Made by a program: the position numbers and the translations under genes. The notes under the pieces were generated by a model that had not been told where the DNA came from, searched no databases, and saw only the letters and a program-made list of their open reading frames with translations. A stretch of DNA of 64,000 nt, taken from contig CAZSBG010000003.1 of NCBI GenBank assembly GCA_964605145.1, positions 55,028-119,027 on the forward strand, in the 5' to 3' direction. Every line of letters starts with the position of its first letter. Position 1 is the first letter of the stretch. Of this stretch, positions 1,341 through 28,304 are shown in pieces. This stretch comes from an uncultured Cytophagia bacterium. Its GTDB lineage: Bacteria > Zhuqueibacterota > Zhuqueibacteria > Thermofontimicrobiales > Thermofontimicrobiaceae.

Positions 1341-1571
1341 TCAACCGCCGCCGACTAATTGAAACAGCTTCACCGAGTCTCCCTCCTTCAATGCATGAGT
1401 TAGCGGAACGCGCGAGCCATTCACCGCCACAAACGCGATTTCTTCCTTTGGCACACTCACCTGGCCAAGCACCCGAACGAGTGCGGATTTCTCTGGGAGG
1501 GTCAGTTCCAGCTCGGGATTGCCGTTGTTATACTTTTTCAGACTGCCGTGAAATGTTAGTGTTATTTTCAT
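1341..1571 (-). CDS. MoaD/ThiS-family ubiquitin-like sulfur carrier protein (C-terminal Gly-Gly)
   Basis: 76 aa with the beta-grasp size and a C-terminal ...KLFQLVGGG diglycine, typical of MoaD/ThiS. GC is native (~52%). Confidence 0.6.
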   Translation of the reverse strand: MKITLTFHGSLKKYNNGNPELELTLPEKSALVRVLGQVSVPKEEIAFVAVNGSRVPLTHALKEGDSVKLFQLVGGG

Positions 1572-2178
1572 TAATTTCAGCCCATTATTTGAGATAAATT
1601 TTATTTGCCTTGAATTGAAAGAGAAAAATACAAAAATTGTAGAAAGATGTCAACCTGATTTTTAATTTTTTGACATAGATAGCTTATGGCACATCAATGA
1701 ATAAAGCGAAAAAATTAGATTGATCAGGAGTAATGTTAAACTATTTATCATATAATTTTTAAAACTATTGATTCATTCAATATTTTTTATCATAATGATG
1801 TGTTGTCACGAGTAACTTTACTGCCCCCTCTTTAGTTTTTTCTTATGCAGGTTTTTCTCGTTACACATTTTTAATTTGATGTTCGAAATTACAATTCAAA
1901 ACCAAAATAGTAACTATTCAGCCACCGAGTCACAAAGAACACGGAGAAAAATTCAATCAAAAATTGCCATCATTTTTTGTAAATAGGATTGCCAAACAGT
2001 GAATACTATCTTTAAAAAGTTACATACATTAAAAACGAATTCATATTTATGCGAAGAATACGTATTGCATCATGTTATTCTGTTTCCAAATAGTTAATGA
2101 AAATATATTTCAATCACATTATGAGACACACTTTCCGAAAATAATTCATGAGAATATCTCTGAGCCCTCTGTGTCTCG

Positions 2179-3600
2179 GTGGCATTTTTCATAAGGCTGA
2201 ATAGTTACCCAAAATATAAGGATGATATTATGGAGACTTTTGAATCCAAGGTCTCTGATATTTTTAAAGAAAATCCCAGGCTTGCCAGAAAAATACCTGT
2301 TGTCATCCGGCAACTTTTCAAAGAATCCGAGGCTGAATTTCGAAGACGAATAAACAAAGCCTCAGAGCATGAACAACAGGTCGAAATGATGAAACTTTTC
2401 GACATCCTATTCATTGATTACTATTTTGATGAGATTGAAGACAACTTTTTAGCCTGGGTCATCAAAAATTATCCGAAGCGATTCACCAGCTCTGAATTAG
2501 AAGAAATGCGGGCACAGGCTTTTTCACATCTCGATTATTATGAAATTCAGGAAGCGATACCGGGAAAGGGAAGCTATTTTAAATCCCTGACTACCAACAC
2601 CGAAGGATTTTTGAAAGATATTTCTTCTTCTTCTGTTTTAGTCAAATGGGATATTCTTTTAGGGCGCTACTATTTTTATCAAGACACATATTTTGCAACA
2701 GGTGCAACCTCTCTATATAGCCAGTCTGATAAGGAATACATTGTAGAACAAATCGAGAAAGCTAAGCAGGAATATTTCGAAGCCAATCCGGAAGCCGACC
2801 ATGCTGAATTCGCTAAAAAACGTTGGGATATTTTTTTCAAGATTGATGACGGCCTGCGCGACAAGGCAAAGAACAAAAAATTCTATACAACATTCGGCGA
2901 GCTTCAATTCTGCGAAGTTCGGTTCAATATAAAAAATTTCCAGGCAATATTGAATACGATTGATAATTTAGACGAATTCGAGTTCGTCGAAGCCAAGACG
3001 ATCCGAAGAGGAAAGAAGAAAAGATTAAATCGCTTCGAGTTTGATTGGCTTACACTGGGAATAGAGGACGAATTGAATCCCATCCGCGTAACTGAATTTA
3101 ATAATGGACTCATGTTAAAAACAGAGCGATTGGACGCCGACGGAAATAAAATCAGAAATGAAACAATAGGGACTTTTTATCTGGATGTATTTCTGGGCCG
3201 GCTCGAAACAAAATCGCTGGAAATTGCCGAGTTTGCCAGGCACCATTTTGTGGATATTTTTGGGGGAGCGCTCACGTTCAAGCGCATTAACAAGTTGGAT
3301 ATTGATATCAAATCAAAACTCGAAGCACAATCCGATGAGACTGAACCTCTTCCTGTAGGTGACATAGATCCATCGCTGAAAGCCCGCGTAGAAGAACAGC
3401 TATTTCTGGATACGCTGGACGAAAAAATTCCCATGTTGAACAACAAAACGCCCCGCGAAGCCAGCCAAATCCCGGAACTGCGCCCCATACTGATAGACTG
3501 GCTCAAAAGCCTGGAAAACATAATGGAACGAAAGCAAAAATCAGGAGAATCCACGGCTTCCATTGAAAAGATAAAGAGGGAGCTGGGTATTGATTGGTGA
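2179..3600 (+). CDS. Hypothetical protein, compositionally atypical (low-GC) orphan gene
   Basis: 473-aa uninterrupted ORF, one of only two plus-strand genes. GC is ~38-40% against ~55% for its neighbours. It is flanked by a 580-bp AT-rich noncoding stretch upstream and a hairpin-rich 356-bp intergenic region downstream. It is rich in charged and aromatic residues and I recognise no motif. Confidence 0.5.
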   Translation: MAFFIRLNSYPKYKDDIMETFESKVSDIFKENPRLARKIPVVIRQLFKESEAEFRRRINKASEHEQQVEMMKLFDILFIDYYFDEIEDNFLAWVIKNYPKRFTSSELEEMRAQAFSHLDYYEIQEAIPGKGSYFKSLTTNTEGFLKDISSSSVLVKWDILLGRYYFYQDTYFATGATSLYSQSDKEYIVEQIEKAKQEYFEANPEADHAEFAKKRWDIFFKIDDGLRDKAKNKKFYTTFGELQFCEVRFNIKNFQAILNTIDNLDEFEFVEAKTIRRGKKKRLNRFEFDWLTLGIEDELNPIRVTEFNNGLMLKTERLDADGNKIRNETIGTFYLDVFLGRLETKSLEIAEFARHHFVDIFGGALTFKRINKLDIDIKSKLEAQSDETEPLPVGDIDPSLKARVEEQLFLDTLDEKIPMLNNKTPREASQIPELRPILIDWLKSLENIMERKQKSGESTASIEKIKRELGIDW

Positions 3601-3780
3601 GGGGAGGGGACACGAACCAATCTGATTCATTACAATCAGAACCTGACATTTACAATTCTATGCTAAATATTTTTAGCATGATCGGTTAGTCAAATCCGCC
3701 CTTTTTCCCTTTTGGGAGCAATTCCCTAAAGTTGTTAAAAACCGTTGAAACGGTTGTAATTGGTTTATTTGTCATTGACC

Positions 3781-3853
3781 ATCACCATAATAAATTATGG
3801 TGTTGATTTGATTCAACTGAGATTGAGCGAACACCACAATTTATTGTGGTGTT
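3781..3853. repeat. Two related palindromes ACACCA(Y)AAT-NN-ATT(R)TGGTGTT, 49 bp apart
   Basis: ATCACCATAATAAATTATGGTGTT (3781-3804) and AACACCACAATTTATTGTGGTGTT (3830-3853). Neither is followed by a U-tract. Confidence 0.45.
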
Positions 3854-3956
3854 AACTGCATAATAAAATGAGAAATAATTTCAGCAGTTTTCAGTAGTGC
3901 TATTTCATAAAGAAAAATAGGAATTTATGGGACTTGCACCCGTCCCTTTTTATATT

Positions 3957-5756
3957 TTATTTGGAAATATCCCCCAAAATTTCATCCAACTGCAACTCGC
4001 GCAGTTTCTCCGGCGTGGGAATGCCATTTTCATCCCAGCCCATGAGCTGGTAATATTCGGCGCGCATTTCGTCCAATTCCACTACGTGGCCTTTGGCCGG
4101 ACCTTTTGCAAGCGGCTCGCTCAGGCAGCGTTTGGGAAGGGTATCATCCTTTTTGGTGAGTCCTTCTCGCACATTGAACATGCGGGCCAGGGTGGTCACG
4201 CGCTCCCCCACTTTTTCCAGTTCGCGCGGATTTTTATAATCAAACCCGGTACATGGATTGACCATCTGCCACACCTCTTTCAGCGTGAAGCCGAACTTGG
4301 TGAAATAGCAAATAATGGCGCAGTCGATGACCGCGGTGTCCAACTGATTCATCTTGAACAACGACGCTTTGCCGGAGACCTCCAGCGGATCGGCGCCGCC
4401 CATAAGCTCGCTCAGCGGCGAACCGTGGAGATGACACGCGCCCCGTTCGGAAATGGCGTAGCTGAGTCCCACACCTTTGGCCCCGCGCGGCAGATAACCG
4501 GGCATTTCCAGGCCCTTCACGTGCATGGCATATTCTTCACTGCCGGGATAATTTTTGCTGAATTCGCGCACGCCTTTTTCCAGTTTCGCACCGATTCCTT
4601 CCCCGGCACAGATTTTTTTCGTCAGTTCAATGAGCGCTTCGCTGCTGCCCCATGTAGCCTCAATGCCATCGAGGTCAGCATTTGACAATATTTTGCGCTG
4701 ATAAAGTTCCATGACAAAACCGATAATCACGCCCACGCTGATGGTATCGATACCGAAATCATCGCACAGGTGGTTCACCTTGATGATAGCCTCGCGATCA
4801 GTGACGCCGCAGTTACTGCCCAGCGCGAAAATGGTTTCATACTCCGGGCCGTCCACGCGCATGCCCAGTTTTTTGTGCTGAGCGATCTTTGTGCAGCCAA
4901 TGCCGCAGCCGTAACACGCAGCCGACTCGTTCCAGTATTCATCGGTCCATGTTTCCCCCCACAATTCCTGATGGCCTTCGAATTGTCCTTCCTGGAAATT
5001 GCGCGTCGGCAATCCCCCGGCCGCGTTGATGAGCTCGACGATATTGGCAGTGCCGTGCTCCTTCATCCGCTGAATCTGCGAGCTCATGCGCAGCATTCGA
5101 TTGGCGACCCACACCATCTCCTGGAACAGAGCAGGGTCTTTCACAGCCACCGCGCCGGTGCCCCGAACTGCCACAGCTTTGAGATTTTTCGAGCCCATAA
5201 CAGCGCCGGCGCCGCCGCGTCCGGCAGTGCGCAGATCGCAGAAAATTCCTGCGATGGGCGCCATACGCTCCGCTGCCTGGCCTATCACCGCGGTTTTGAA
5301 CTCCTTGCCATATTTTTCCGTCAGCTTTGTCGTTGCTGCCATGGTGCCGGTTCCCCAAAGATCGCCGGCATCGTCCAGCCGAACCGAGTCGTTATCGATG
5401 ACCAGCACTTTTGGCGAAGCAGCCCGGCCGGTCATCACGATGGCGTCGTAGCCGGCCCATTTCATGGTCTGGCCGAAAAAACCACCGGCATAGGAATCGA
5501 GAATGGTGCCGGTGGCCGGACTTTTGGTGAATACGCCCAATCGCCCGGCAGTGGGCGCTGTGGTGCCGGTGAGCGGGCCGACCGCAAAAATGAGCGGGAC
5601 TTTAGGCGCGAGCGGATCGGTATGCGGCGCCAATTCGTTGTACAAAATCAAGCTGGCCAAACCCTTTCCGCCAAGCACCAGCCGCATGACTTTTTCATTC
5701 AATTCTTCAGTTTTAATCGTCCCGGTCGAAAGATCGACGCGCAGTATTTTATTCAT
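3957..5756 (-). CDS. aor: Tungsten-containing aldehyde:ferredoxin oxidoreductase (AOR family)
   Basis: AOR-family N-terminus (MNKILRVDLSTG...) and the conserved 4Fe-4S cysteine ligand cluster (ESAACYGCGIGCTKI), ~600 aa. The ORF extends to 5807, but the AOR-like start (MNKILRVDL) is the internal Met at 5756. Confidence 0.85.
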   Translation of the reverse strand: MNKILRVDLSTGTIKTEELNEKVMRLVLGGKGLASLILYNELAPHTDPLAPKVPLIFAVGPLTGTTAPTAGRLGVFTKSPATGTILDSYAGGFFGQTMKWAGYDAIVMTGRAASPKVLVIDNDSVRLDDAGDLWGTGTMAATTKLTEKYGKEFKTAVIGQAAERMAPIAGIFCDLRTAGRGGAGAVMGSKNLKAVAVRGTGAVAVKDPALFQEMVWVANRMLRMSSQIQRMKEHGTANIVELINAAGGLPTRNFQEGQFEGHQELWGETWTDEYWNESAACYGCGIGCTKIAQHKKLGMRVDGPEYETIFALGSNCGVTDREAIIKVNHLCDDFGIDTISVGVIIGFVMELYQRKILSNADLDGIEATWGSSEALIELTKKICAGEGIGAKLEKGVREFSKNYPGSEEYAMHVKGLEMPGYLPRGAKGVGLSYAISERGACHLHGSPLSELMGGADPLEVSGKASLFKMNQLDTAVIDCAIICYFTKFGFTLKEVWQMVNPCTGFDYKNPRELEKVGERVTTLARMFNVREGLTKKDDTLPKRCLSEPLAKGPAKGHVVELDEMRAEYYQLMGWDENGIPTPEKLRELQLDEILGDISK

Positions 5757-5842
5757 GTATCCACAATCTCGAAGCGACATTTTCAGGCTCCTGGTATTTT
5801 CAATCAAAAAATTCTTTATGAATTAACCTTATTTTAGAAGCA

Positions 5843-6970
5843 CTACAAACCAACAAATACTTCAAAATTTTCCTGTGTAATAAATTGGAATTCGCTGTTT
5901 GGATAATTTTCTATAAATGAATTCGGTATTTTCTTTTTTGCTTTTTGCCATTTTATTTCAAACGCATGAAGCATACCACCTTCTTCTTCAATATAGTCGA
6001 TTTCCTGTTGTTTATGCGTTCTCCAAAAATACGTATTCACGAAATAATCAGTATTCGAATTTCGTTTCAATCGTTCACTAATAATGAAATTTTCCCATAG
6101 CTGGCCTTTATCCTGTCTAAGATGCATTGGATTTAAATTATTTATCAATGCATTTCGAACTCCTGTATCGTAGAAATATATCTTTCGAAGACGTTTTAAT
6201 TCATTTCTTATATTTCGACTAAATGGGGAAAGTCTAAATATCACGAATGCCTTCTCTAATAGCTGAATATAATTCGAAACCGTTTCTTTTGAAACACCTA
6301 ATAAATTGGACAATTCTTTAAACGAGACTTCCTGACCTATTTGTAAAGCAAGCGCAGTCAAAAGTTTTTCAAGCATTTCAGGACGTCGAATATCCTGGAA
6401 TTGAAAAACGTCTTTGAAAAGATAACTCGAAGTCAATTCTCTTAATAATTTTGAACTTTCTTCTGGTTTCGTTTCTACTTCGGGGTACATACCAAATATT
6501 ATTTTGCGCTCAAGAATTCTTCGAATTTCTATGAGGGAATACTTTTGAGTCAATTCAATTAAGGATAATGGGAACAGTTGAAATTCGTATTTCCTTCCAG
6601 TCAAAGGCTCTGTTACACTATTTGATAAATCAAAAGACGACGACCCGGTCGCTATAACCTGTACATCAGGAAAATTATCAACCAGAAGCTTCAAAGTAAG
6701 CCCGATATCCGGCACTCGCTGAGCTTCATCGATGAAGATAATCTTTCTGTTGCCTAAAAGGAGTTGCAAATTTGTTGACGTGGCATTTGTTAAACTGTTT
6801 CGAATATCTGTTTCATCGCAATTCAAAAAAAGAGTATCATCCATGGGATAGTTCTCCATGATTGTCTTAATCATGGTTGTTTTCCCAACCTGCCGTGCAC
6901 CATAAATTATAATGCACTTTTGTTTAAAGAAATGCTTTTCAATTGTATTTTGAATATTTCGAATAAACAT
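5843..6970 (-). CDS. AAA+ superfamily ATPase (COG1373, DUF4143-type)
   Basis: Walker A motif GARQVGKTT and Walker B motif IIFIDEAQ, 375 aa, with the COG1373/DUF4143 architecture. GC is very low (~36%), so the gene appears to be a foreign insertion between the AOR and aldolase genes. Confidence 0.75.
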   Translation of the reverse strand: MFIRNIQNTIEKHFFKQKCIIIYGARQVGKTTMIKTIMENYPMDDTLFLNCDETDIRNSLTNATSTNLQLLLGNRKIIFIDEAQRVPDIGLTLKLLVDNFPDVQVIATGSSSFDLSNSVTEPLTGRKYEFQLFPLSLIELTQKYSLIEIRRILERKIIFGMYPEVETKPEESSKLLRELTSSYLFKDVFQFQDIRRPEMLEKLLTALALQIGQEVSFKELSNLLGVSKETVSNYIQLLEKAFVIFRLSPFSRNIRNELKRLRKIYFYDTGVRNALINNLNPMHLRQDKGQLWENFIISERLKRNSNTDYFVNTYFWRTHKQQEIDYIEEEGGMLHAFEIKWQKAKKKIPNSFIENYPNSEFQFITQENFEVFVGL

Positions 6971-7137
6971 TCTGCCATCCTTTTTAATAGTAAATTAGGC
7001 GATTATACTCGCTTAATTTACTAGAAATAAGGCTAATTGTCAAGAAAGATTTTACTTTTAACGCCAAATTCATACAATTCCGATATCCCTGGAACACAAA
7101 CAGAACTATCAAAATCGCGTTGCGAATAATACTCTTA

Positions 7138-8385
7138 TTATTTCACCAATATCGCACCATACTTGCACCAGCGCGCGCATTGGGGAGTGCCGCCGCACAG
7201 ATCGCAAATGACAGGGAATCCTTCGCCGTCAAAATAGATCACGCTGAATGGGCACACCTCCGCGCAAACGCCGCATTTGTTGCAGAGTGATTTGTTCAAC
7301 TCGATGTGGCCCTTTTCATTGATGAACAACGCTCCCGGCGCGCACGATTTGATGCATTTTTCACACAGCGTGCACACGTTCACTTTGTTCAGCGGCGGCT
7401 CCTGATCCACCGGTTTGGAATCGATTCGCAGCCGCGCGCCGTCGATGCCAAATCTTGATTGATGCGCCTGAACGCAGACTGTTTCGCACACCAGGCATCC
7501 GACGCAATTCTTTGAATTGGCCCGCAATCGAATTTTGCCCTCGCGCGGCGCTTCATAAATTTCTTCGATGGTTTTGTAACCGTGGACGAGATCGCACAAA
7601 TCCTCCACCATTTTTTTTGGGTCTTTGGCTTTGGTCACATTTCGGCCAAACACGGTGCCGCTGGCCCCGGCGCGCAGGGCTTCATCGACCAACTCCAGTG
7701 CATCGCGGGGCACATCGGACTTGGCGCCGCCCAACACCAGCACCGGCACTTTGGACTGATCCACCAATTGCTTGAACGTCATCACATCCCCGGTGTACGG
7801 AATTTTCAGGGCGTCCGCCCCAATTTCGACCGCGATTCGCGCCGAAGCGATGAGGATTTCCGCAATGTTCACCCCGGTGACCATGCCGCCCACAGCCATG
7901 GGCTCGATAATGAGCGGCAGTCCCACCTTGCGGCATTCCTGTGCAAACACCGCCGCCTGCTCGATGTTGAGCGATTCAAATTCATCGCTGTAACCGATGA
8001 AATAATAAATCGTAATCGCCGAAACGCCTATATGCAGCGCGTGTTTGGCGCGGGAGGTCGCCATTTTCCTGAACTTGATCACCGGCAGCACATTGCTGAC
8101 ATTGGCGCCACCCAATCGCGGCAGGTTCATCCAGTCTGCGCGGGCGATGACCGCCGGCTTGTCTTTACCCTGAAACATGTGCCCCATACGCTGCACCGTG
8201 CCGAACGACATGAGCACGCCATCGGCTCCCCCGGCAATTACCTGTGCCAGAATATTCTTCAAATTGATCACATTGGCCGTCGGGTCGGACATCCAGCCGT
8301 GATCCGCCGCTACACAGACCGCTTTTCCATCGGCAGGATTGAACAACCGATTCATCCTGGCCGTTTTGCCTGGACTCGAATACAT
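7138..8385 (-). CDS. DhnA-type class I aldolase domain fused to a C-terminal 2x[4Fe-4S] ferredoxin domain
   Basis: The N-terminal ~270 aa carry DhnA/FbaB-family motifs (VCVAADHGWM; the Schiff-base lysine context GADALKIPYTG). The C-terminal ~140 aa carry two clusters, CVGCLVCETVC and CNKCGVCAEVCP, plus additional CxxC motifs. Confidence 0.7.
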   Translation of the reverse strand: MYSSPGKTARMNRLFNPADGKAVCVAADHGWMSDPTANVINLKNILAQVIAGGADGVLMSFGTVQRMGHMFQGKDKPAVIARADWMNLPRLGGANVSNVLPVIKFRKMATSRAKHALHIGVSAITIYYFIGYSDEFESLNIEQAAVFAQECRKVGLPLIIEPMAVGGMVTGVNIAEILIASARIAVEIGADALKIPYTGDVMTFKQLVDQSKVPVLVLGGAKSDVPRDALELVDEALRAGASGTVFGRNVTKAKDPKKMVEDLCDLVHGYKTIEEIYEAPREGKIRLRANSKNCVGCLVCETVCVQAHQSRFGIDGARLRIDSKPVDQEPPLNKVNVCTLCEKCIKSCAPGALFINEKGHIELNKSLCNKCGVCAEVCPFSVIYFDGEGFPVICDLCGGTPQCARWCKYGAILVK

Positions 8386-8388
8386 ATT

Positions 8389-9150
8389 CTATTTTCCCTC
8401 TTTTAATTTCGTTATCGAATTGAGAAAATCTGCTTCCTCCAAAATCTTCTCGGAAAAAAGCAGGCCCTGCACGCCCAGATCGAAAACAGTGTCGGACTTG
8501 GCTTTGCTTAGCATTTTTTCCGTCCGCGCGATGACCGGCACCGTTGACCAGCCGGTAATGAGCGACAAGCTTTCTTCGCTGCAAAGTGGAATAATCATTG
8601 CGTCAGCCCCTGCTTCCATCATGAACGACACGCCCAATTTAATGGTGTCCTCATAATTAATTTCACCCACGTTCGGTCCGATGGGACGAATGTCCACAAA
8701 TACCGGCAGCGAAATTTCGTAGCTATCCCGCAGCAGATGGGAAATGGAGCGAATATTTATGGCTTCGAAATCGTCGCCAAAGCCCATGAACAGCGTTGCT
8801 ACAGCAGCCGAACCTCCCAGAGCCAGCACATCCCGGGCCGACGAAATTTCAATGCGCCGCACATCGCTCACCGGCAGACAGAAATCGGCGCCGCGATAGG
8901 CGTTTGTCCAATCCACGCGCACCAAACCGGTTCCGCGTTTTTTCCCGCCAAGTTCGTGGGAGAGATGTTCCATCTGGCCGGGATTCACAATAATTCCATC
9001 GAACGCGGGGCTGCATTCCCGAAGCACAGATTTTAAATTCTCCAAATTGGGAGGCGCGCCGATGCTGGAAGCAATGGTGGTGTCCAGCAGCAGTGCACGC
9101 TGGTGCAGAATATCACTCATTCGAATGGCTTTGCCAATAAATGTTTGCAT
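8389..9150 (-). CDS. DhnA-type aldolase-like paralog lacking the Schiff-base lysine (probable non-catalytic or divergent subunit)
   Basis: 253 aa, and it aligns to the N-terminal domain of the downstream gene. Examples are EAGADAMIIPLCSE against EIGADALKIPYTG (K to I) and LLDTTIAS against VAADHGWM (DHG to DTT). It ends 3 bp before the next gene, so the two form an operon. Confidence 0.6.
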   Translation of the reverse strand: MQTFIGKAIRMSDILHQRALLLDTTIASSIGAPPNLENLKSVLRECSPAFDGIIVNPGQMEHLSHELGGKKRGTGLVRVDWTNAYRGADFCLPVSDVRRIEISSARDVLALGGSAAVATLFMGFGDDFEAINIRSISHLLRDSYEISLPVFVDIRPIGPNVGEINYEDTIKLGVSFMMEAGADAMIIPLCSEESLSLITGWSTVPVIARTEKMLSKAKSDTVFDLGVQGLLFSEKILEEADFLNSITKLKEGK

Positions 9151-9380: not shown

Positions 9381-12300
9381 CTATTTTTCGAATTTCAGAT
9401 TCAGCCAGGTCCCACTCTGAGAAAAATTGGGCAGCCAATCCTGGGTGCGGATGACCAATCTCAATTCCTTCACACCGAAGGCAGGCACCGAAAATCTCTG
9501 CACCTCCGAATCCAGCGTCATCGGGCGGCTGACATAAATTTCGTTATCGTCACCATACACGGCAAACTGCATTTTGCTTTTGCCATTGGTCATATTTTCC
9601 GCCTTCACCTGGGGATTCAAATCCACGGACACTGCGCCGGACAGGTTTTTCCACGAGCCATCCAAAGAATAAACCAGCTCGCAATTGGGCATCACCCCAA
9701 TTCCTTTGGTTGAACCGTCCTTTAACGCACGCCCCCAGAAATTGCGATCCATTTCCGGCAGTCCGGTCCAAAAGTCTGTCTGGTCCGGTCTCACATCGCT
9801 CAAATAAACAGCGTTGGCTTCCATTGCAGATATTGGTTTTTCAACTACCTTTCGGGGCAATATTTTTCCGCGGACCTCCTCATCCGTTTTCCACTGGTAT
9901 TTCGGATTCACCTGCCAGTCCTGGTCAAAAAAACCGCAGGCGAGCGGAGAGCCGTCAACCGTCATATTTCCCTGGTGAAAATTGATGCCGGTGGTTCGCT
10001 CGTCAAAAATAATATAATCAAAGTCCGAACCCATCCGCCGCACAATGCCATCCATTGCCTGCCACGAATTGCCGGCGTTGACAACCACGTATCGCCCGCG
10101 ATTCAGCGGATTGGGATAGATGAAAACAGCCCCAACATTCTGGCCACGATACTTCTTTTCTCCAACAATCACAGCATTTTTTTCGAACCGAATCGGCAGG
10201 TCAGCTTCAATCTTTTTCGTGACGCCGTTGTTGTTCGGTCCGCCGAACAAAATTAGGTTGAACTGCGCGATATCGTTTTCAGAAATTTCACTATCCTTTT
10301 TCAAACGACATGGCACATGCTGCCAGGCCTGCCACTGCTCAGAAAACGCCTCTGCTTCCCGAATGTTCATTTTCGTTTCCATTTTCGAACCGGCTGTTCC
10401 GGCCACCAGCATAAATCCCGAATTGTACGCATCCAGAATGGGACCGCACAGAATTTCCGTTTTCACCAATTCGCTTTTATTTGAATCTGGCAAAACCGTC
10501 CAGCCAGATACAGTGCCATCTTTTTTCTGTTTCGCACCAAAACGAATCAATAATTCGCCCGAAACCGAAGCGGATAAGGCAGGTTCATCGTTCACTGATA
10601 TTTTAATTTCTGCGGGAATATCCACCAAGTTCTTATTGAGGCGCAGGCTGAATTCAGAGATATTATCCGTCCGAACATGGATTGTCCTTCTATCCATTAT
10701 TTCCCCTTCGATTTTGGCAAATGCCATAACATCCGCGAAACGGTCGATCTCGGCCCAATAGGCGCGATTGTGTTTCAGGCTGGCTGTCTTGTAAACCACG
10801 CGTTTCGGAAATCCGTCGCGTTTTTTATCCTCGAACCCGTTGTAAATATCATAATCCATTTGCGGATCAAACCCGCCGTGCATGGCTTCCGGGTGCTCTT
10901 TGTACGTGATGTTGTAGCCCAACGCCCGCAAACGCTTCACAATTTTTCGGCTCTGGGCGATTGGGACAATATCGTCCTTCACGCCGTGATTGCACAGCAC
11001 AGGCAGATTCGACGCATTTTCCGCAAAGGAAAGCGCGCTGCGTTTTGCCAGGATGAACGTCCGCTCCGGCGACAAATCCGTGGTATCCAGACCGGTCCAG
11101 AAGGCGTATTCGGTCGGACCCATAATCGGCGCCAAAGCGGCGAATTTATCCGGAAAAGCCAGCCCGATATTCCACGTTCCGGCGCCGCCCATGGAGCCGC
11201 CGGTCAGATAAATTCGGTTTTCGTCGATGTCATAGAGCCGCTTCACTTCGGCCAGCACTGTTAGAACATCATTCTCACCGATGTTCTGGTACATGGTGTT
11301 TCCGCGGCCAAACGGGTTGACAACAATGTACCGGCCTTTTTCCGTGGCAAACGGCATAAACGCCGGCAAAAACTGGTTCTCGTGCCAGGCCGCAAATCCA
11401 GGGTCGTAGCCGTGCAAATTGATCACCAGCGGATAGGGCTGGCCCGGCTCGTATTCGTTCGGCGCGTGCACCGCGTAACCCTGCAAACTTCCCTCGATAT
11501 CGGAATAATAGCCGCGCAAAAAGCTGCCTTTTTGGCCGATGAACGGATTTCCTTCCTCACTCATTTTAATGAATAAAGAATCAACTTCGGCCAGACCGTT
11601 GCTCAAAAAATCTTCGAACAAAGCAAGGTAGCCCGGCTTATCCGAATTGTTCAGCATTTTTTTCAGCGGCAACAATTTCACTTCCAGGCTCGCCAAATCA
11701 TTGGAATGAATCCTGGTAATCGTATCGCCCTTCTTCTTACCAATTTCATTTTCAATGGATTGAATTTTGTCTGCCAGTTCCTCGTATTTATTTCGGACAA
11801 TTTCGAAACCGGCGGTCCCTTTGAATTCTTTTCCGCCGGAATTGGTCACTGCCACGGCCGTTTCGTAATTTCCATCCCCCCACTTTGAAATGTCAATTTT
11901 CTTTTCAATGAAGTTAGTTTTGACAGAAATCTTCTCGCTGAAATCCGCTCGCAATGTGCCGTTTGAATCGTACACCGCCAATTTGCAGAGAATATCCTTC
12001 TCAGAATCTTCAAATACAGAATGAAACGCGCCGATTTTGAAAATCAGTTGGCCGGTTTGTCGATAGACCTTCTTATCCGGTTTTAAAATAACAAACGGGA
12101 AATCACCTTCACTTTTTGAAGCGATAAGACCTTCGCGTGCCGCGCAGTACCAGACCCATTTCGAATTGTGTTGAACCGCCTCATTTTCCGGGGCGATTTC
12201 CCGGGCCTTGGTGATCTGCTTCAGCGCTTCTTCGAAATCATTGTTCTCCGCGCTGATGATGGCCAGGTTGTTGTGGATGATGGATTTATTTTCAAACCGG

Positions 12301-13106
12301 TCAAGATTTTCTTTCAGCGTCGATTCCGAAAAAAACAATTCGCCCCGAAGAAAATTCACTTTTGCCCCGGTCAGTGCGTCCAAATCTTTCTCGCCATCGA
12401 GCCAGCGCCATATTTTCGACGGACGAATTTTGCTGTACACATTGAAATCATCTACGCCGGCATGCGCCCCGCCATCCTGAATCATGCTGATGGAACAGAC
12501 CGTGTTCGCCGGTTTCATCGGCGCATAATCCAGCGCGATAGCATTGTAAAATGGCGGCTCATCCGATTGGTCCCCCTGCCAGATTTTCATTTTGAACGAC
12601 GCCGGCCTCTCCCCTTTCACATCCACGCGCACCCATTGCCAGACGCCGAATTCGATCTGCCCTGGCTCCGAAGCGAACAGTGTTTCCGGCAAACTGCCCA
12701 CCTCGGCTTTTTTGATGCTGATGACGCCATCCTTTGAAATCTCGAATTTATAGTCGCTCCATCCCTGCTGCCTTACGGCAATGGTGAATAAAAAATTTGT
12801 ACCGTTGATGGGCTTGAACCGAAACAGGGTGGAAAAATCGCGATTCAACACGGCATTTTCGAACGTGGGAATGGCTGCATAAATCTGTTGGGTGATATTG
12901 CTGCTGTCCAGCGATATGAATATGCCGTCCCTCACCTGCCAGGCGCCAAATCCCCACACTTTCATGTCCTGCCATTTTTCTGCGGTTCCGCTTTCGAAAT
13001 TATCGGAGAATAAATCGCCCTTTTGAATGAACTGGCCTCTCGCCGTTACCGAAGCAAAGAAAAGCACGATTAACACTGACATACAGAAAATGGTAATTTT
13101 TTCCAC
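9381..13106 (-). CDS. Secreted 1241-aa multidomain protein: N-terminal LamG/DUF1080-like domain, TPR-like region, S9/esterase-type alpha/beta-hydrolase domain, C-terminal beta-sandwich domain
   Basis: Signal peptide MEKITIFCMSVLIVLFFASVTARGQ. Alpha/beta-hydrolase nucleophile elbow LTGGSMGGAGTW with a downstream D and H (CNHGVKDD, AMHGG). The concanavalin-like N-terminal region is assigned by similarity only. Confidence 0.55.
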   Translation of the reverse strand: MEKITIFCMSVLIVLFFASVTARGQFIQKGDLFSDNFESGTAEKWQDMKVWGFGAWQVRDGIFISLDSSNITQQIYAAIPTFENAVLNRDFSTLFRFKPINGTNFLFTIAVRQQGWSDYKFEISKDGVISIKKAEVGSLPETLFASEPGQIEFGVWQWVRVDVKGERPASFKMKIWQGDQSDEPPFYNAIALDYAPMKPANTVCSISMIQDGGAHAGVDDFNVYSKIRPSKIWRWLDGEKDLDALTGAKVNFLRGELFFSESTLKENLDRFENKSIIHNNLAIISAENNDFEEALKQITKAREIAPENEAVQHNSKWVWYCAAREGLIASKSEGDFPFVILKPDKKVYRQTGQLIFKIGAFHSVFEDSEKDILCKLAVYDSNGTLRADFSEKISVKTNFIEKKIDISKWGDGNYETAVAVTNSGGKEFKGTAGFEIVRNKYEELADKIQSIENEIGKKKGDTITRIHSNDLASLEVKLLPLKKMLNNSDKPGYLALFEDFLSNGLAEVDSLFIKMSEEGNPFIGQKGSFLRGYYSDIEGSLQGYAVHAPNEYEPGQPYPLVINLHGYDPGFAAWHENQFLPAFMPFATEKGRYIVVNPFGRGNTMYQNIGENDVLTVLAEVKRLYDIDENRIYLTGGSMGGAGTWNIGLAFPDKFAALAPIMGPTEYAFWTGLDTTDLSPERTFILAKRSALSFAENASNLPVLCNHGVKDDIVPIAQSRKIVKRLRALGYNITYKEHPEAMHGGFDPQMDYDIYNGFEDKKRDGFPKRVVYKTASLKHNRAYWAEIDRFADVMAFAKIEGEIMDRRTIHVRTDNISEFSLRLNKNLVDIPAEIKISVNDEPALSASVSGELLIRFGAKQKKDGTVSGWTVLPDSNKSELVKTEILCGPILDAYNSGFMLVAGTAGSKMETKMNIREAEAFSEQWQAWQHVPCRLKKDSEISENDIAQFNLILFGGPNNNGVTKKIEADLPIRFEKNAVIVGEKKYRGQNVGAVFIYPNPLNRGRYVVVNAGNSWQAMDGIVRRMGSDFDYIIFDERTTGINFHQGNMTVDGSPLACGFFDQDWQVNPKYQWKTDEEVRGKILPRKVVEKPISAMEANAVYLSDVRPDQTDFWTGLPEMDRNFWGRALKDGSTKGIGVMPNCELVYSLDGSWKNLSGAVSVDLNPQVKAENMTNGKSKMQFAVYGDDNEIYVSRPMTLDSEVQRFSVPAFGVKELRLVIRTQDWLPNFSQSGTWLNLKFEK

Positions 13107-21204: not shown

Positions 21205-22122
21205 TCACTCTCCCAGCAATTCCAAAAACCTTTCCTCAATTTCATCCTCATCAATATCCTGCCCGATGATAACGAACCGATTCAACCGGCTATCCTTATT
21301 GCTCGCAGGTGTGATGGACCACATTTCAGACGTGGCATCAACGAAATATACCTGATTTTCGATGGACACGAAGCCCTTCAACCGCATCACTTTTGAATCA
21401 ACGGTTTCCCGGAACTTGTCCCAATTCGCGTTGGAGAACGTGCCTGTTTTTTCCAGGGTCACGGAAATAACAGGATCGGGCCGGCCTTCGCCGGGACTTT
21501 CGCTGGCGCCGGCATCCGGATGTCTCAATTTTGTTAGCCTGTCTAACGGAAAATCCGCATATTGCGTTTCAATTATTTCTGCTGTAGAATTCATCGCTTT
21601 TACAGCTTTGACCACATCCGCCACCTGGGATTCAGAAACCAGGTCAGTTTTATTCACAAGCACCAAATCGGCGCTGCGAATTTGGGACGCTGGCGCTTTG
21701 AGGTTATCTTTAATTTTCATAAAATTCTGACAATCGACCACACACAGGCAGGCCTGCAATTCAATGTAATCCTTTAAATTGGGCAGTGCGAGCATTTTTT
21801 CCATTTCTGTGGTGTCGGCCAAGCCGGTCGCTTCAACAATGAGCAGGTCAGGCTTAATTTGGGTAGCGATCTTTTCCACCTCAAAAATGAAATCCGTGCG
21901 CACACAGATGCAAAACAGGCTGCCCTTGTTGAGTTCCACCTTTTCATAATTGCCCTGTACAAGCATTTCACCATCGATGCCCACTTTGCCGAATTCATTG
22001 ATTAGCAACACGGTTCGCTGGCTTTTGTAGAATTCGATCAATCGATTCAGCAGCGTGGTTTTCCCGGCGCCCAAAAAACCGGTCAGTAATATTGTTGGAA
22101 TCATTCCAGGTTTTTCAGCCAT
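21205..22122 (-). CDS. COG0523-family (CobW/YjiA/ZigA-like) metallochaperone GTPase
   Basis: G1 motif GFLGAGKTTLLN, metal-binding CxCC-like motif (SLFCICV) and a C-terminal CobW_C-like domain. It overlaps the upstream gene by 22 nt. Confidence 0.75.
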   Translation of the reverse strand: MAEKPGMIPTILLTGFLGAGKTTLLNRLIEFYKSQRTVLLINEFGKVGIDGEMLVQGNYEKVELNKGSLFCICVRTDFIFEVEKIATQIKPDLLIVEATGLADTTEMEKMLALPNLKDYIELQACLCVVDCQNFMKIKDNLKAPASQIRSADLVLVNKTDLVSESQVADVVKAVKAMNSTAEIIETQYADFPLDRLTKLRHPDAGASESPGEGRPDPVISVTLEKTGTFSNANWDKFRETVDSKVMRLKGFVSIENQVYFVDATSEMWSITPASNKDSRLNRFVIIGQDIDEDEIEERFLELLGE

Positions 22123-23774
22123 TCTTTAATCACCTCCACGGATGGGACTCGGCCAACCGATTTAACATTTTGATCAATTGTAATGATGGCCGGTGTGGAT
22201 GCCACACCATATTTATAAATTTCTTTTTCATCTTTCACATGTACAATTTCGACGAGGCTGCCTAATTCTTTCGCCGCCTGAACCACATTTTGCCACGCTT
22301 CATCGCACGTCTCGCAGCCATCACCCAGCATAATCAGTTTGCCCTTGTGCTGTTGTAATTTCATAAAAAATTTCTCGTTAATTCGTTCCTGGATGGCTTT
22401 TATTAACTCATCGCGAGATGGAATGGTGCTGACAAACTTAATTTTCCCATCGATGCAAATTGTGGGAATATTTTTCACCATCAAGCCCATCATGAATTCC
22501 ACGGACTCCTTTTCCTTGATTTTATGCTCCCGCCAGATGAGGAGATCGTTGAACTGCGGGGCAACTGTTTTCACCGCTTCCACCATGTACTGACAAGGCG
22601 CACACCCCTCAGAATCCAACGTGATGACATCGATGATCACTTTATCCGCCTGCCCATAATCAGCGAGATTGATCTTGGTTGCGACTTTTTCTCGCTTTTC
22701 CAGCAATTCACGAGCGACATCCAATTTATAGGGATCGTGGATGATTTCCGTGATGGCTATTAAATTTTTGGGTGGCACGGCGTATGGCAGGTCACAGCCG
22801 GGTGCAAGGATGAATCCGGTATCCCCGCCCACGTCAAGGCATTCAAGGGCATTCCGTTTGGAATCGTCTTCGCTTCCCATGAGTAATACGACAGTCAATT
22901 GCAAATTTCCGCCAAATGAAATGCCAAATTTTTGACAGATATTTTTCACATAATCCAGTGGGATGTTTTCATCAATGGACACGTTGTCCGGGCGTGTCTC
23001 GCACATGGCTTCAATATTTCTCTGGGCATGTCCGCACACGAAAAATGAGGAATAAGCGCCCTGTTTACGAATTTCATCGAAGAAATCCGTGGCTGCCGGT
23101 GTGACAAATTCACGAAAAGCTTCCGGCGAGATCTGGCTGGTCATGGGATCGACCATAGCAATGACGTCGCAGCCGGCTTCGATGTACATACGGGCCATCT
23201 TTTTCGCTATCTCATTTGAAAAATGAACCAGTTCTTTCACAGAATCCGGATTATCAAACATATCCATGAAAATATCGGTCCCTTTCAAATGCAGCGACAG
23301 GGTGAAGGAACCAGTGACAAGTCCGTATAACGCAACATCATCAGTCTCTTTTTTGAGCGTCCGGATAGCTTTTAAAATCTCTGGAATTCTGCCTGAATTT
23401 TCATCCGGAATTTTCAAATCGCTGATTGACTTTCCATTGGCCAGCACATGATCCACCACAGCCGGGGGATTGTCTTTAGACCATTGCAACTGGCAGCCCA
23501 TGGCCTCGGCTTCAATTTGAAGATCGAACATCACAGGAATGCCATCCGGTTTGTACTGCTTGATTGCTTCTTTGGCGCCCTGCACCATCAAATCACCTGA
23601 CTTCAAATATTCATCAGCCTTTTTCCCGATTAACGCGCCGCCATGGCAACCAACAAATGGCAGCCAGGGTGCGCGTTCGGTTTTTTTACCTTTCAATGCA
23701 TCGAATAAAAGTTGTTTGCTCATTTCATTGCCCTCTATTAATTTGAAATTGTATAATTGTCGTAACTCACCCAA
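22101..23774 (-). CDS. URO-D/MtaA-superfamily (methyltransferase-like TIM barrel) protein fused to two C-terminal thioredoxin-like CxxC domains
   Basis: The N-terminal ~350 aa are uroporphyrinogen-decarboxylase-family-like (ERAPWLP..., ...FILAPGCDLPYAVPP). Two ~85-aa thioredoxin-fold modules follow, with CAPC and CETC motifs and ...GVASTPAIIID..., typical of small redox-active disulfide proteins. An alternative start is Met18, at 23723. Confidence 0.65.
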   Translation of the reverse strand: MGELRQLYNFKLIEGNEMSKQLLFDALKGKKTERAPWLPFVGCHGGALIGKKADEYLKSGDLMVQGAKEAIKQYKPDGIPVMFDLQIEAEAMGCQLQWSKDNPPAVVDHVLANGKSISDLKIPDENSGRIPEILKAIRTLKKETDDVALYGLVTGSFTLSLHLKGTDIFMDMFDNPDSVKELVHFSNEIAKKMARMYIEAGCDVIAMVDPMTSQISPEAFREFVTPAATDFFDEIRKQGAYSSFFVCGHAQRNIEAMCETRPDNVSIDENIPLDYVKNICQKFGISFGGNLQLTVVLLMGSEDDSKRNALECLDVGGDTGFILAPGCDLPYAVPPKNLIAITEIIHDPYKLDVARELLEKREKVATKINLADYGQADKVIIDVITLDSEGCAPCQYMVEAVKTVAPQFNDLLIWREHKIKEKESVEFMMGLMVKNIPTICIDGKIKFVSTIPSRDELIKAIQERINEKFFMKLQQHKGKLIMLGDGCETCDEAWQNVVQAAKELGSLVEIVHVKDEKEIYKYGVASTPAIITIDQNVKSVGRVPSVEVIKEWLKNLE

Positions 23775-23807
23775 TCAAACTGGTTCACTTTTTTTTATAA
23801 TGCCATC

Positions 23808-26800
23808 TTACTTCAACAATAGTAGCTTTCGCTGCTTCACCACTTCACCGACCTGCATTCTGTAGAAATATACGCCGCTTGAAACCGCCTGTCCCGCAGA
23901 ATTCAGCCCGTCCCATTCCGCCACATGAAATCCACTGGTTTGTTCCGCATCCACAAGCGAGCGAACCAATTGGCCACTCACATTGTAGATTTGAAGTCTC
24001 ACGCGAGCCGGCCGGGGCAGTTGATACCGGATCGTGGTTTTCGGGTTGAATGGATTGGGATAATTCTGAAACAGGCGATACGATTCGGCTGGTTGAGAAT
24101 TATGCGCGGCGATTCCGGACACGGTGAAATTCGCCCTGACAGTTTTCACCTCATGCGGAATGAGTGAGACCTGCACGCCAGCCTCTGTTACCGAAGCCGC
24201 CGATGTTTCATTTTCCACGCCGTCCGTCACGCTGGCCGAACTCCACCTGAAGATATCCGAAGACAGCGTTGCATTGGCTGTGGTTCCGGCCCATTCCAGC
24301 AGCCGAAAAATAGCACCATTCCCATCTTCGGCCTGTTTGGCATTCACCAACATCACATTAGCCGGCACCACATTGAAAAAGCTTGCGGCCGGTTCCCGAA
24401 ATTTACCGTTCGGATTACTGTCCACCAATTCAGCCAGCAGCGGGTTGCTGAACGCCCAATTGAATCGGGCTGACTGAACCTCATCGAAGGATCGGCTCTT
24501 CCCGCAGAACGAGTAGTGCATTACAATGAGCGGACTGGCGCCAGGCTCGCCAATGATGGGACCGACGCTTCCATCGGCGAACATGCCCTCATCCTCTTTT
24601 TTGATGAAGCGGGAAATCAGTGTGGCCGCAGTCGGGTTGAATTCCGAATTGAGTCCGTGGAATTTTTCGAACTCCACCACGAACGCTTCGCGGTTCGCCC
24701 AATTTATGGAATACGCGCCGTCGCTCATGGCGCCCCCGTGCTGGATGGCGAAATATCCGCGCGGCGCCCCGGGCAGGTGATCGGTGGCCGGATTCAAAAA
24801 TCCATGCGCGCCTTCCAGGCGTACCTCAAAATTCGGCAGATCGAATGGAAACGTGTAGGCATAATATTCGAAATTAATATTCTGCGGAACCCAATCCATC
24901 AAATCGCGATCCGCAGTGTTCACAATATCCACGCGGTCGATATCGTTGTAGAGCCAGATTTCGGTTCGAACGATGGGCGTGCCGGTTCGGGTAATCACCA
25001 GGACTTTGGCCACATCGCCCTGAATCGACGTATCCATCTGGGCAACACCTGATGGAATGGACACATAACTTCCCCCGGCAGCCTCTGCGCTGTTCGCCTT
25101 GATGCAGCCGTTGAAGCTGTGCTCACTCGCAATGTTGACCAGCTCGCGTTGTTCCCGTTTGTCATAAATACTGAGAATGCTCCCATCGACTGAACTGACC
25201 TCAATCCGGTAAAAATCGTTTTCAATGGCAGGCTCGACGAAGGTCTTTGTATTTTCAACCAGCGGCTTTTCATCAGGCGATTCTTTTCCGGGCGAGGCCA
25301 CAAGTTTATAAATTTTGTACCCAATCGAAGGAACATCCTTTGCTGCGAACAGAATCTCCCCGGTCGATTCAATTTTCTGACAAGCAATTGCGCTGTCGTT
25401 CGCGGCGTCGATCAGCGAAAAGCTTTGATTCAGCCATTCGTTGTTCAACGGCATTTTCACAACATCGGTTCGATCCCAGGAAAGCGGATTGAAAACCAGT
25501 ATCGAAGGCGACTTCGTCTGGACTTCTGCTGCCAAATTCGCAAGCCCTGTTTCAACCAGAAAGCAGGACGAATCGTACGCGTCTTTGGCATAATGAAACG
25601 CAATCTCACTTTGATGCCGGGCTTCATCGTAAGTCATTAAACCGGGCCACGGGGTGCCGCCGCCGCTGTGCTCGTCGAATTGCAGCATGTTTTCATAAAT
25701 GCCATTCATTTCCGCAGCCGGATATTCCGAAGCCTGCACCGACAAATTAATGAGCGAAAGTTTTTCCGCCGTGGTGGCAAAGTCATGCGCCGCGCGATTC
25801 ATTCCCATGCTCTGCGGCGTGTTGAGCGAGATGTGATCCCAGCCTCCGCTCCAGTCACCGCGATAGGTTTCGAACTGGCTCCCGTATTTTTCTTCCAAAT
25901 GAATGAAAAAATCTTCCGGCCGCGCCACAATCAGTTTCGGATTGGCATAGCTTTTATTCCACAAACTGGTCATACCGACGTGCAGCGTATTCGGTTCGGT
26001 ATTTTCAATTTTCCCGACCATAATCATAATCGCGTCATAGGGATAGCCGGCTGCTTCCAACCGTGTCAATTCATTGTACAGCGCCTCGTAAAATGTGGTT
26101 ATATGCGACATTTCAAAGGTGGTGTACCATTCGATATAGCTGCCATAGCTGATCCATGTGAGCACTTTGCTGCCATCCGGTCCCTGCCAATAAAACGGAT
26201 TGTGCGCGGCCGGCAATTTCGGACCGCCGCCAAACGCATCGTTAATGCCGGTTGCCATGTATTTCACCCCGGCTTTTGCCAGCGCCGAGGGCATTGCCCA
26301 GGCATAGCCGGGCACATCGTTCTGAAAAATTGTGTTCAATTTAAATCCAAATTCCTGCCGGTACTTTTCCGCCGGGTAGAGGAATCGATTCAACTCCTCG
26401 GTGCCCAGTGTGGCCGAGTGCATGGTAGCGTAGCCGGCGCACATGTCCATTCGGCCGGATTGTACCAGTTCCCGGAAATGGTCAATTTCCGCGGGAGTAC
26501 TTCGCTTCAGCCACTGCTCCAATTGCCAGATGCTTTCAATTGTCCATTTGTAGGTGGGAATATTATCGATGTAGTTGATGGCTTTATCGATGATGGTTTT
26601 GTACTGATCCGCCACAACATCCTGGGGATCGGTGAAGCCGATGTCGAGATGCGTGAAATGCACGAGGTAAATGTATCGAATCGGCGACGCAATGCCTGGC
26701 TGGGCAAAATGAAACGCGCCCAAATCTGCAATGGTCCCGTCCGGGTCGACTTCGCTGGCAGGGTCGCCGGCATCGATGCAGGGCGAGCCGGGGCTGAGTC

Positions 26801-28109: not shown

Positions 28110-28304
28110 GCATTCTCCGGAGTTTATTGCTTCAATATACAAAATAAAATAGAAAATATCTTGTTTAATTGTGTTGTATTTTTGTCATATCTTGCTGAAG
28201 CATTTTTTGTCTTTGATAAAAATCAAAACCTCATTTTACCAAATTCGAGAAAATTAGTTTCTCTGAATTCAATTTTTTCAACCCATGATTTAATAATTTA
28301 TGTC

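Follow-up and report, generated by a model that had tools for sequence, protein, structure and literature searches.

A predicted class I aldolase fused to a homolog of AOR small subunits in a conserved gene unit of uncultured bacteria

The window analysed here is a 64,000-nucleotide (nt) stretch, 64 kb in all, of contig CAZSBG010000003.1 (assembly GCA_964605145.1), from an uncultured Cytophagia bacterium that GTDB places in the Zhuqueibacterota. Four genes lie between positions 3957 and 9150, all on the minus strand and all pointing in one direction, and three of them form the unit described here: a pseudo-aldolase paralog, a fusion of a class I aldolase with an iron–sulfur (Fe–S) domain, separated from the paralog by 3 nt, and an oxidoreductase of the aldehyde oxidoreductase (AOR) family. 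The unit is intact in the window, but two insertions divide it. Its parts belong to known families; an aldolase joined to an AOR small subunit would be a new arrangement. An initial annotation of this DNA had named genes that are all present on the minus strand at the positions given, and Pfam profiles confirm their domains. Its description of an AOR beside two aldolases holds in that the three share a cluster, but a gene for a 375-residue protein parts the fusion from the AOR, and the second paralog lacks the catalytic Lys.

Proteins encoded by the unit

The C-terminal domain of the fusion carries four Cys motifs (C294/297/300/304, C338/341/344/348, C368/371/374/378 and C394/397/403/407), of the CxxCxxCxxxC type with the fourth reading CxxCx5CxxxC, and is therefore predicted to hold four [4Fe–4S] clusters. 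In an alignment of 21 fusion homologs with 50-87% identity, 15 of these 16 conserved Cys are invariant, and C371 is kept in at least 90% of the sequences. Taken alone, the domain aligns end to end with the Fe–S subunit of Pyrococcus furiosus WOR5 (6X6U_B, 57.7 bits, the top match among AOR partners), with AorA of Aromatoleum (8C0Z_C, 43 bits), with the Fe–S subunit 9MQX_E (42 bits) and with BamC (4Z3W_E, 31 bits). Larger total scores among PDB sequences came only from multi-module polyferredoxins, for example MvhB, and were gathered over several short stretches. Like the AOR-family small subunits, the domain combines a length of about 130-190 residues with four [4Fe–4S] motifs (three in BamC) and can be aligned over its full length; unlike them, it is not a free-standing polypeptide, being fused to the aldolase in 79 of 81 loci chosen by aldolase motifs. 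These alignments identify it as a homolog of the small subunits WOR5 beta, AorA, 9MQX_E and BamC. Such polyferredoxin subunits are dedicated electron-transfer partners of AOR-family enzymes (PMC12096430). The initial annotation had described a 2x[4Fe–4S] ferredoxin and had pointed to ferredoxin as the electron acceptor of AOR enzymes. A ferredoxin-type domain it is, by its Fer4 Pfam and PDB-sequence matches, but with twice that number of cluster motifs, and it is a homolog of the enzyme's own small subunit, not a generic ferredoxin in the role of external acceptor. A Chloroflexia metagenome-assembled genome (MAG) that contains the unit (locus L034, 8085-10341) also encodes a second AOR, of 41% identity, and directly after it a polyferredoxin that stands free and is 34% identical to the fused domain; the two make up a pair of the classical AorB/AorA kind.

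The N-terminal domain of the fusion matches the DeoC family (PF01791, 88 bits) and several NCBIfam models at scores under their cutoffs: PRK07226 (174.7 bits, cutoff 241), TIGR01949 (154, cutoff 299), NF040816 for archaeal fructose-1,6-bisphosphate aldolase (FBA; 117, cutoff 430) and NF006081 (99.6, cutoff 297). Its best matches among PDB sequences are the ADH synthase MJ0400 (125 bits), the Thermoproteus tenax FBA enzyme FBPA (1OJX, 95 bits) and LsrF. A model of the domain built with AF2 has a pLDDT of 81, with residues 88-110 as its sole long low-confidence loop, and Foldseek aligns it with 2QJG and 2QJI (E about 1e-21, TMt 0.84) and also with 1OJX (TMt about 0.84) and 3GLC; over these family members TMt is 0.82-0.85 and identity 25-32%. 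D28, H29, G30, E161, P162, K194, G219-G220 and G247-R248-N249 show no variation among the 21 fusion homologs and are kept nearly throughout a set of 82 sequences, in which only gaps in the alignment and one aberrant extraction depart from them. In the alignment with T. tenax FBPA, the counterparts of Asp28 and Lys194 are Asp24 and Lys177, and the GG (219-220) and GRN (247-249) loops, which bind phosphate in this fold, are retained. In T. tenax FBPA, Asp24 is catalytic and Lys177 is the Schiff-base lysine (PMC4881948).

The barrel departs from these relatives in one segment: T. tenax W144-S-Y146-P-R148-G-G reads E161-P-M-A-V-G-G in the window, with an invariant Glu at the Trp144 position throughout the fusions and Arg148 replaced by Val. 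It also has a subfamily-specific insert, R-A-D-W-M-N-x-P-R-L-G, adjoining the low-confidence loop. Sequence and predicted fold together place the fused barrel among the DhnA-type class I aldolases, and the E-P-M-A-V segment and the NCBIfam scores under cutoff set it apart as a distinct subfamily.

The 253-residue protein encoded just upstream has no Pfam match and only a weak NCBIfam match (PRK07226, 1.6e-8). Profile–profile comparison with hhalign relates it to the fusion family with a probability of 99.95% (E = 1.7e-38). The position of Lys194 is occupied by I, A, V, L, T or S in all 75 orthologs and by Lys in 0 of 75, which rules out this paralog as an active aldolase; the D28 position is Ser or Thr, the H29 position is variable, and neither the GG nor the GRN loop remains. 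W85 and N87 of the family motif are still invariant. The paralog evolves faster than the fusion (mean pairwise identity 46% versus 63%), and its substitutions mark it as a pseudo-aldolase, which we read as a non-catalytic partner subunit.

The conservation of the two barrels bears on whether aldolase chemistry takes place at all. Asp28, His29, Lys194, Glu161 and the phosphate loops are invariant in the 21 fusion homologs and are all lost in the paralog, which argues for selection for catalysis in the fused barrel; in addition, conservation is higher in the aldolase than in the Fe–S domain (mean identity to the window, 63% versus 45%). These data make it unlikely that the pair of barrels lacks aldolase activity and is instead an oligomerization platform, or a sugar-phosphate-binding regulator, for an AOR that oxidizes aldehydes made elsewhere. 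What speaks for such a scaffold or sensor is that one barrel is clearly dead, that the other lacks an equivalent of Tyr146, that some Chloroflexota loci have a separate set of isomerase, kinase and class II aldolase just upstream, and that the decamers formed by DhnA-type aldolases could serve as a platform (PMC4881948).

The AOR of the window matches both family profiles (PF02730, 254.4 bits, cutoff 29.8; PF01314, 432.6 bits, cutoff 27) and its alignment with P. furiosus AOR (1AOR, 469 bits) is full-length. The other high PDB scores also belong to the AOR clade (9MQX_D, 460; 9G7J, 449; AorB 8C0Z_A, 415), and lower ones to other clades (WOR83, 313; FOR, 293; WOR5, 243; BamB, 174). The alignment with 1AOR conserves the segments CYGCGIGC, GPEYE, GACH and GTA and the equivalent of Cys494. 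Of the P. furiosus residues, the [4Fe–4S] ligands Cys288/291/295/494 are kept, as are the second-shell residues T243, Y312, E313 and H448; the roles given to these residues follow in part PMC12096430. Bit scores and residues assign the protein to AOR sensu stricto as a canonical enzyme of the tungsten type, predicted to oxidize aldehydes. Homology begins only at residues 16-18, so that translation probably starts at an internal Met. At other loci the gene may be broken: in L002 (9539-11106) the AOR downstream of the fusion lies in two adjoining pieces, called as two genes, and in L020, L031, L039, L050, L061 and L082 it appears as split tblastn matches. Frameshifts, pseudogene formation or errors of assembly may account for these split AORs, which occur in some MAGs of Chloroflexota and Bacteroidota.

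The initial annotation had expected an AOR of a GAPOR- or FOR-like clade and had likened the locus to archaeal glycolysis, in which case fructose-1,6-bisphosphate would be cleaved and the resulting glyceraldehyde-3-phosphate oxidized to 3-phosphoglycerate with ferredoxin. GAPORs do occur within the AOR family (PMC12096430), and the aldolase is homologous to the archaeal DhnA-type FBPA 1OJX and matches the NCBIfam model Fbpase1_Arch, at 117 bits and far under the cutoff of 430. Several features make this condensed FBA and GAPOR step highly improbable. The GAPOR_Arch model (NF040818) reaches 58.7 bits, where its cutoff is 1300, and covers no more than 125 N-terminal residues (20-144), and FOR scores 293 bits versus 469 for AOR, so that GAPOR or FOR identity is ruled out; the enzyme is nearest to the broad-specificity AOR clade, with second-shell residues kept. 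The aldolase lacks equivalents of both catalytic Tyr146 and Arg148, and the neighbouring genes, described below, belong to peripheral sugar pathways and not to core glycolysis.

Conservation of the gene order

Related loci were collected by scanning 185,579 species, each represented by a single genome, with two aldolase peptide motifs as the sole criterion. The scan returned 98 loci, and the 80 best were retained. Synteny was counted on 81 non-redundant loci (related loci bear L numbers here); for the AOR, only loci whose downstream sequence extended for 1 kb or more were counted. In metagenomic protein data, the fusion has more than 100 full-length homologs. The AOR lies immediately downstream of the ferredoxin fusion, on the same strand, in 71 of 71 informative loci, with a median gap of 13 nt, and the paralog lies upstream of the fusion in 76 of 77 loci with enough upstream sequence. 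Since the loci were fetched with aldolase-only patterns, the synteny with the AOR is independent of the search, and since the same order recurs in all 71 informative loci, it is far beyond chance. The listed carriers are Zhuqueibacterota/KSB1, Bacteroidota/Ignavibacteriota, Aminicenantes, Planctomycetota, Neomarinimicrobiota and, for the most part, Chloroflexota (Anaerolineales), and uncultured members of at least six named groups at phylum level share the three-gene unit.

The arrangement extends to more divergent fused clades of 44-46% identity: the AOR is immediately downstream in L085 and L087, the paralog is placed after the AOR in L085, and in L084 the fusion is followed by a gene cut off by the contig end that is probably an AOR. 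Absence of the Fe–S domain goes together with absence of the oxidoreductase. L079 and L081, with 66% identity, are the sole two close relatives without the Fe–S domain and are also without an AOR; in both (L079 10016-12856 and L081 70-1661), the pair of live and dead aldolases is followed by a URO-D-like gene. Nested as they are among fused forms, these two look as if they had lost these parts secondarily or had kept a state from before the fusion. More distant relatives with no fusion (41-44% identity) are found in sugar loci, again with no AOR. Across loci, the pairwise identities of the fusion correlate with those of the AOR (r = 0.97) and of the paralog (r = 0.96). The comparison of neighbourhoods thus bears out the suspected conservation of the aldolase–ferredoxin fusion next to AOR, and the coupling that the initial annotation proposed, of aldol cleavage to AOR oxidation through the fused Fe–S domain, gains backing from the synteny, from the correlation with AOR and from the unfused relatives that lack it.

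The window is otherwise collinear with the locus of a Zhuqueibacterota MAG (L004), and both of the sequences that divide its unit appear to be insertions (Table 1). The first, of 1.3 kb, contains the AAA_14/DUF4143 gene and interrupts the otherwise invariant junction of fusion and AOR. Along its whole length, the encoded protein matches PDC-S01, a candidate anti-phage defence gene in PADLOC (534.7 bits); no homolog of the gene was found in the 83 related loci fetched to that point, and no counterpart in the closest ones, L005-L008. Absent from related loci and matching PDC-S01, the gene is ruled out as part of the unit and is identified by these comparisons as a window-specific insertion encoding a candidate defence ATPase. 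The second is a segment of 2.4 kb with a GC content of 36-38%, compared with 53% in the AOR. Its ORF (open reading frame) of 473 codons has no Pfam, NCBIfam or PADLOC match and the segment has no counterpart in L005-L008; it is probably another insertion, which would have displaced the MoaD-like gene from the AOR. A search for transposon-like ends of the two insertions gave only short, weak repeats, none of them convincing.

The MoaD-like gene is orthologous to a gene of 76-83 codons that directly follows the AOR in L006, L008 and L016, and its product is probably a maturation factor for the AOR cofactor. The link to the cofactor, which had been suggested from proximity in the window, is therefore stronger than first claimed. 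A search of the entire window for a Moco/Tuco riboswitch or any other Rfam family at gathering thresholds found none. At several KSB1, Ignavibacteriota and unclassified MAG loci, the AOR is followed, with or without the MoaD-like gene, by a gene for a conserved membrane protein of about 210 residues that belongs to no Pfam or NCBIfam family (Table 1); it could be a transporter for substrate, product or tungstate. Directly upstream of the unit in the window (9381-13106, minus strand) is a gene for a 1241-residue protein that combines an S9 peptidase/esterase with a C-terminal NPCBM domain, and the same gene is found upstream of the unit in L004 and L006.

Table 1. Features of the locus in window coordinates, with the positions of a recurrent membrane protein gene at other loci
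Feature	Position	Strand	Description
MoaD/ThiS-like sulfur carrier (predicted)	1341-1571	-	76 aa; PF02597, 3.9e-8; C-terminal GG
Low-GC segment, outside the unit	1572-3956		between AOR and MoaD-like gene; ORF 2179-3600 (+)
AOR catalytic subunit (predicted)	3957-5807	-	616 aa; PF02730 and PF01314
AAA_14/DUF4143 ATPase (predicted), outside the unit	5843-6970	-	375 aa; PF13173 and PF13635
Aldolase–ferredoxin fusion	7138-8385	-	415 aa; DeoC PF01791 at residues 23-251, several Fer4 families at residues 292-384
Fusion, predicted 4x[4Fe–4S] polyferredoxin domain	7138-7533	-	residues 285-415 and stop
Fusion, aldolase domain	7546-8385	-	residues 1-280; Lys194 codon at 7804-7806
Pseudo-aldolase paralog (predicted)	8389-9150	-	253 aa; paralog of the fusion family without Schiff-base Lys
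Membrane protein of ~210 aa	L008 13938-14570; L011 13079-13756; L013 13171-13794; L023 12803-13438; L024 5178-5801		

Sugar-pathway context and proposed reaction

Genes for a PfkB sugar kinase and for DUF4432, a family on which we found no informative literature, recur near the unit in several lineages. In Anaerolineales, the operon that precedes it encodes PfkB, a XylA-like isomerase, a GlcD-like protein, a Cys-rich protein (cluster c11) without a Pfam match that we read from its sequence as GlcF-like, a ketose-3-epimerase-like protein, UPF0261, a creatininase-like protein and a LarA-like protein, and the genes that follow it encode TauE, UPF0261 and a PEP-hydrolase-like protein. On the metagenomic contig of L087, GntR, a sugar ABC transporter and PfkB come before the unit and PMI and DUF4432 after it; neighbours at further loci include FucI-like and class II aldolase-like proteins, an FGGY kinase and LacI. 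Because sugar-pathway and 2-hydroxyacid genes recur in this way, the context points to the catabolism of a phosphorylated ketose with use or export of a 2-hydroxy acid. A search of the window for these recurrent neighbours recovered only the MoaD-like gene and weak similarity to GH38 and URO-D. One region of the window (21205-29525, minus strand) encodes a CobW-type GTPase, a fusion of a URO-D-like protein with a thioredoxin domain, a 1444-residue GH38 protein with a sorting tail of the type IX secretion system (T9SS) and another URO-D-like protein. Genes of the URO-D-like and GH38 kinds likewise stand beside the aldolase pair in L079, L081, L083, L044 and L065, and they may link it to the use of mannosides or methylated sugars.

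In the case that we favour, the three proteins form a heteromeric aldolase that is docked to the tungsten AOR through the fused small subunit and that couples cleavage of a ketose phosphate to oxidation of the released aldehyde; we assign this a probability of roughly 0.6. The pseudo-aldolase and the catalytic TIM barrel would assemble into a hetero-oligomer, in which the conserved GG and GRN loops would hold a ketose phosphate for Schiff-base formation with Lys194. Retro-aldol cleavage would then yield dihydroxyacetone phosphate (DHAP) and an aldehyde that carries no phosphate and probably has a 2-hydroxy group; glyceraldehyde, lactaldehyde and glycolaldehyde are examples. Arg148 of T. tenax FBPA presumably binds the 6-phosphate of the substrate; the loss of its equivalent, together with an oxidoreductase of the AOR clade, leads us to favour a product aldehyde without phosphate. 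AOR-type WOR1 oxidizes lactaldehyde (PMC11725836). By homology, the AOR would dock on the fused polyferredoxin as WOR5 alpha does on WOR5 beta and AorB on AorA, its tungsten-pterin site would convert the aldehyde to the acid, and two electrons would leave by way of its [4Fe–4S] cluster and the four of the fused domain, to be taken up by soluble ferredoxin or a different partner. The whole would be a ferredoxin-linked counterpart of aldolase–dehydrogenase channelling, set within sugar catabolic operons.

A more specific architecture can be imagined, and our confidence in it stays somewhat short of even. Live and dead aldolases would alternate in a ring, AOR units would sit on polyferredoxin arms, and the aldehyde would be channelled to the tungsten site, giving an anaerobic branch of sugar catabolism that yields reduced ferredoxin and replaces diol-forming reduction or NAD-dependent oxidation. 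The users of such a holoenzyme would be, as tentatively, Chloroflexota, KSB1/Zhuqueibacterota, Bacteroidota-Ignavibacteriota, Aminicenantes and Planctomycetota.

The exporter-like gene after the AOR raises a different substrate. In ferredoxin-linked sulfoglycolysis, sulfofructose-1-phosphate or a related sulfo-ketose phosphate would be split into DHAP and sulfolactaldehyde, and the latter oxidized to sulfolactate for export by TauE/SafE. A TauE/SafE gene (PF01925) does follow the AOR, directly or one ORF on, at 20 loci, nearly all of them in Chloroflexota MAGs of the Anaerolineales type, but versions of the locus from KSB1, Bacteroidota and Planctomycetota and that of the window have none, and TauE-family proteins are generic anion exporters. 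A PfkB kinase with a class I aldolase of the DeoC superfamily reproduces the enzyme types of YihV and YihT, and YihT and other SFP aldolases are weakly represented among the fold matches; no sulfoquinovosidase or desulfonating enzyme was found among the recurrent neighbours. Among PDB sequences the Fe–S domain best matches the small subunit of WOR5/ASOR, which acts on sulfonates (PMC12096430), but the catalytic subunit scores 469 bits with the AOR clade versus 243 with WOR5 and keeps the Thr and Tyr residues that WOR5 has lost (PMC12096430). On balance we hold sulfoglycolysis to be unlikely.

The catabolic setting also bears on direction. AOR enzymes can also make aldehydes by reducing acids (PMC12096430), aldol reactions run both ways, and the closest solved homolog of the aldolase, MJ0400, is biosynthetic; reduced ferredoxin might therefore let the AOR reduce a carboxylic acid to the aldehyde, which the tethered aldolase would at once condense with DHAP, pulling the unfavourable reduction towards a sugar phosphate, the tether aiding capture of a scarce aldehyde. 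Sugar ABC transporters, kinases, isomerases, glycoside hydrolases and LacI/GntR regulators around the unit, and adjoining genes for a 2-hydroxyacid racemase and dehydrogenase that fit use of an acid product, make this reductive direction very unlikely.

Each of these alternatives, four with the archaeal-type glycolytic step and the scaffold or sensor, is rated below the coupled cleavage and oxidation of a ketose phosphate. That reading builds on what the loci display directly, namely domain identity, residue conservation, obligate synteny and the pattern of co-loss, and several observations count against it. The equivalent of catalytic Tyr146 is Met163 in the window and Leu, Met or Ile throughout the 82 fusions, so that aldolase chemistry may differ or be absent, and the aldolase domain falls under every NCBIfam equivalog cutoff tested (ADH synthase, archaeal FBA and LsrF). 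Docking of the AOR on the fused domain is proposed from homology alone. Some AORs, in L002 and elsewhere, seem to be split, and every listed carrier is a MAG. A correlation of 0.97 is expected for any co-inherited neighbouring genes. The neighbours vary by lineage, and PfkB, DUF4432, LarA, TauE and other recurrent ones are absent from the window, where the defence-type gene between fusion and AOR also makes co-transcription less certain.

Relation to known systems

If the proposal is correct, the unit represents a new subunit architecture for the AOR family, whose known members are homodimers, monomers or complexes with polyferredoxin and flavin- or HydABC-type partners; no member is known to which the substrate-forming enzyme is attached. 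It would give an AOR a pathway-specific physiological substrate, where most AORs are described as broad aldehyde detoxifiers, and for anaerobes the 'second half' of a ketose phosphate would become a source of low-potential electrons, for H2 or energy conservation, and not a drain on reductant. As the carriers are abundant uncultured lineages of sediments, digesters and hot springs, the route may matter for anoxic carbon flow. The conserved pair of live and dead aldolases also offers a clean setting in which to study what a pseudo-enzyme does. The searchable full-text literature yielded no description of an aldolase–AOR or aldolase–polyferredoxin fusion, in line with the earlier remark that the fusion is uncharacterized, and a 2025 review of the subunit architectures of tungsten enzymes lists no aldolase partner (PMC12096430). 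Homologs of the fusion carry generic source annotations ('4Fe-4S dicluster domain-containing protein', 'class I fructose-bisphosphate aldolase').

The closest precedents for the electron-transfer part are WOR5/ASOR (6X6U), AorAB(C) (8C0Z), 9MQX D/E and WOR1 L/S, in which, as here, an AOR gene stands beside a 4x[4Fe–4S] subunit. Unlike WOR5 and AorAB, the unit has its small subunit as the C-terminal domain of a class I aldolase, not as a separate polypeptide, and it adds a pseudo-aldolase; unlike AorABC-type enzymes, it has no FAD subunit (AorC) or HydABC-like part conserved nearby. With the DhnA family (M. jannaschii MJ0400, 2QJG; T. tenax FBPA, 1OJX; Escherichia coli LsrF, 3GLC), the fusion has in common the TIM barrel, the equivalents of Asp24 and Lys177 and the phosphate loops, whereas the Fe–S domain and the pairing with a dead paralog set it apart.

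Archaeal glycolysis with a DhnA-type FBPA and GAPOR resembles the unit in that an AOR-family enzyme oxidizes an aldolase product with ferredoxin as acceptor, and the branched Entner–Doudoroff route likewise uses a KD(P)G aldolase and a glyceraldehyde oxidoreductase of the AOR type. The archaeal pathways employ separate proteins and not a fixed gene unit, whereas the listed carriers of the unit are all bacterial MAGs.

The logic of the proposed complex is shared with DmpFG, BphIJ and HsaFG (1NVM, 4JN6), in which an aldolase is joined to an aldehyde oxidizer and the reactive aldehyde is kept in (PMC12041015). Enzymes of the DmpFG type pair a metal-dependent pyruvate (HOA) aldolase with an acylating NAD/CoA dehydrogenase of the GapDH superfamily, and neither family occurs in the unit, which would combine a Schiff-base aldolase of the DhnA type with a tungsten-pterin AOR and Fe–S transfer. 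Its product would be a free acid, compared with the acyl-CoA of DmpFG, and any channelling in it is putative. The unit would thus be a ferredoxin-dependent, non-homologous counterpart of DmpFG-type channelling.

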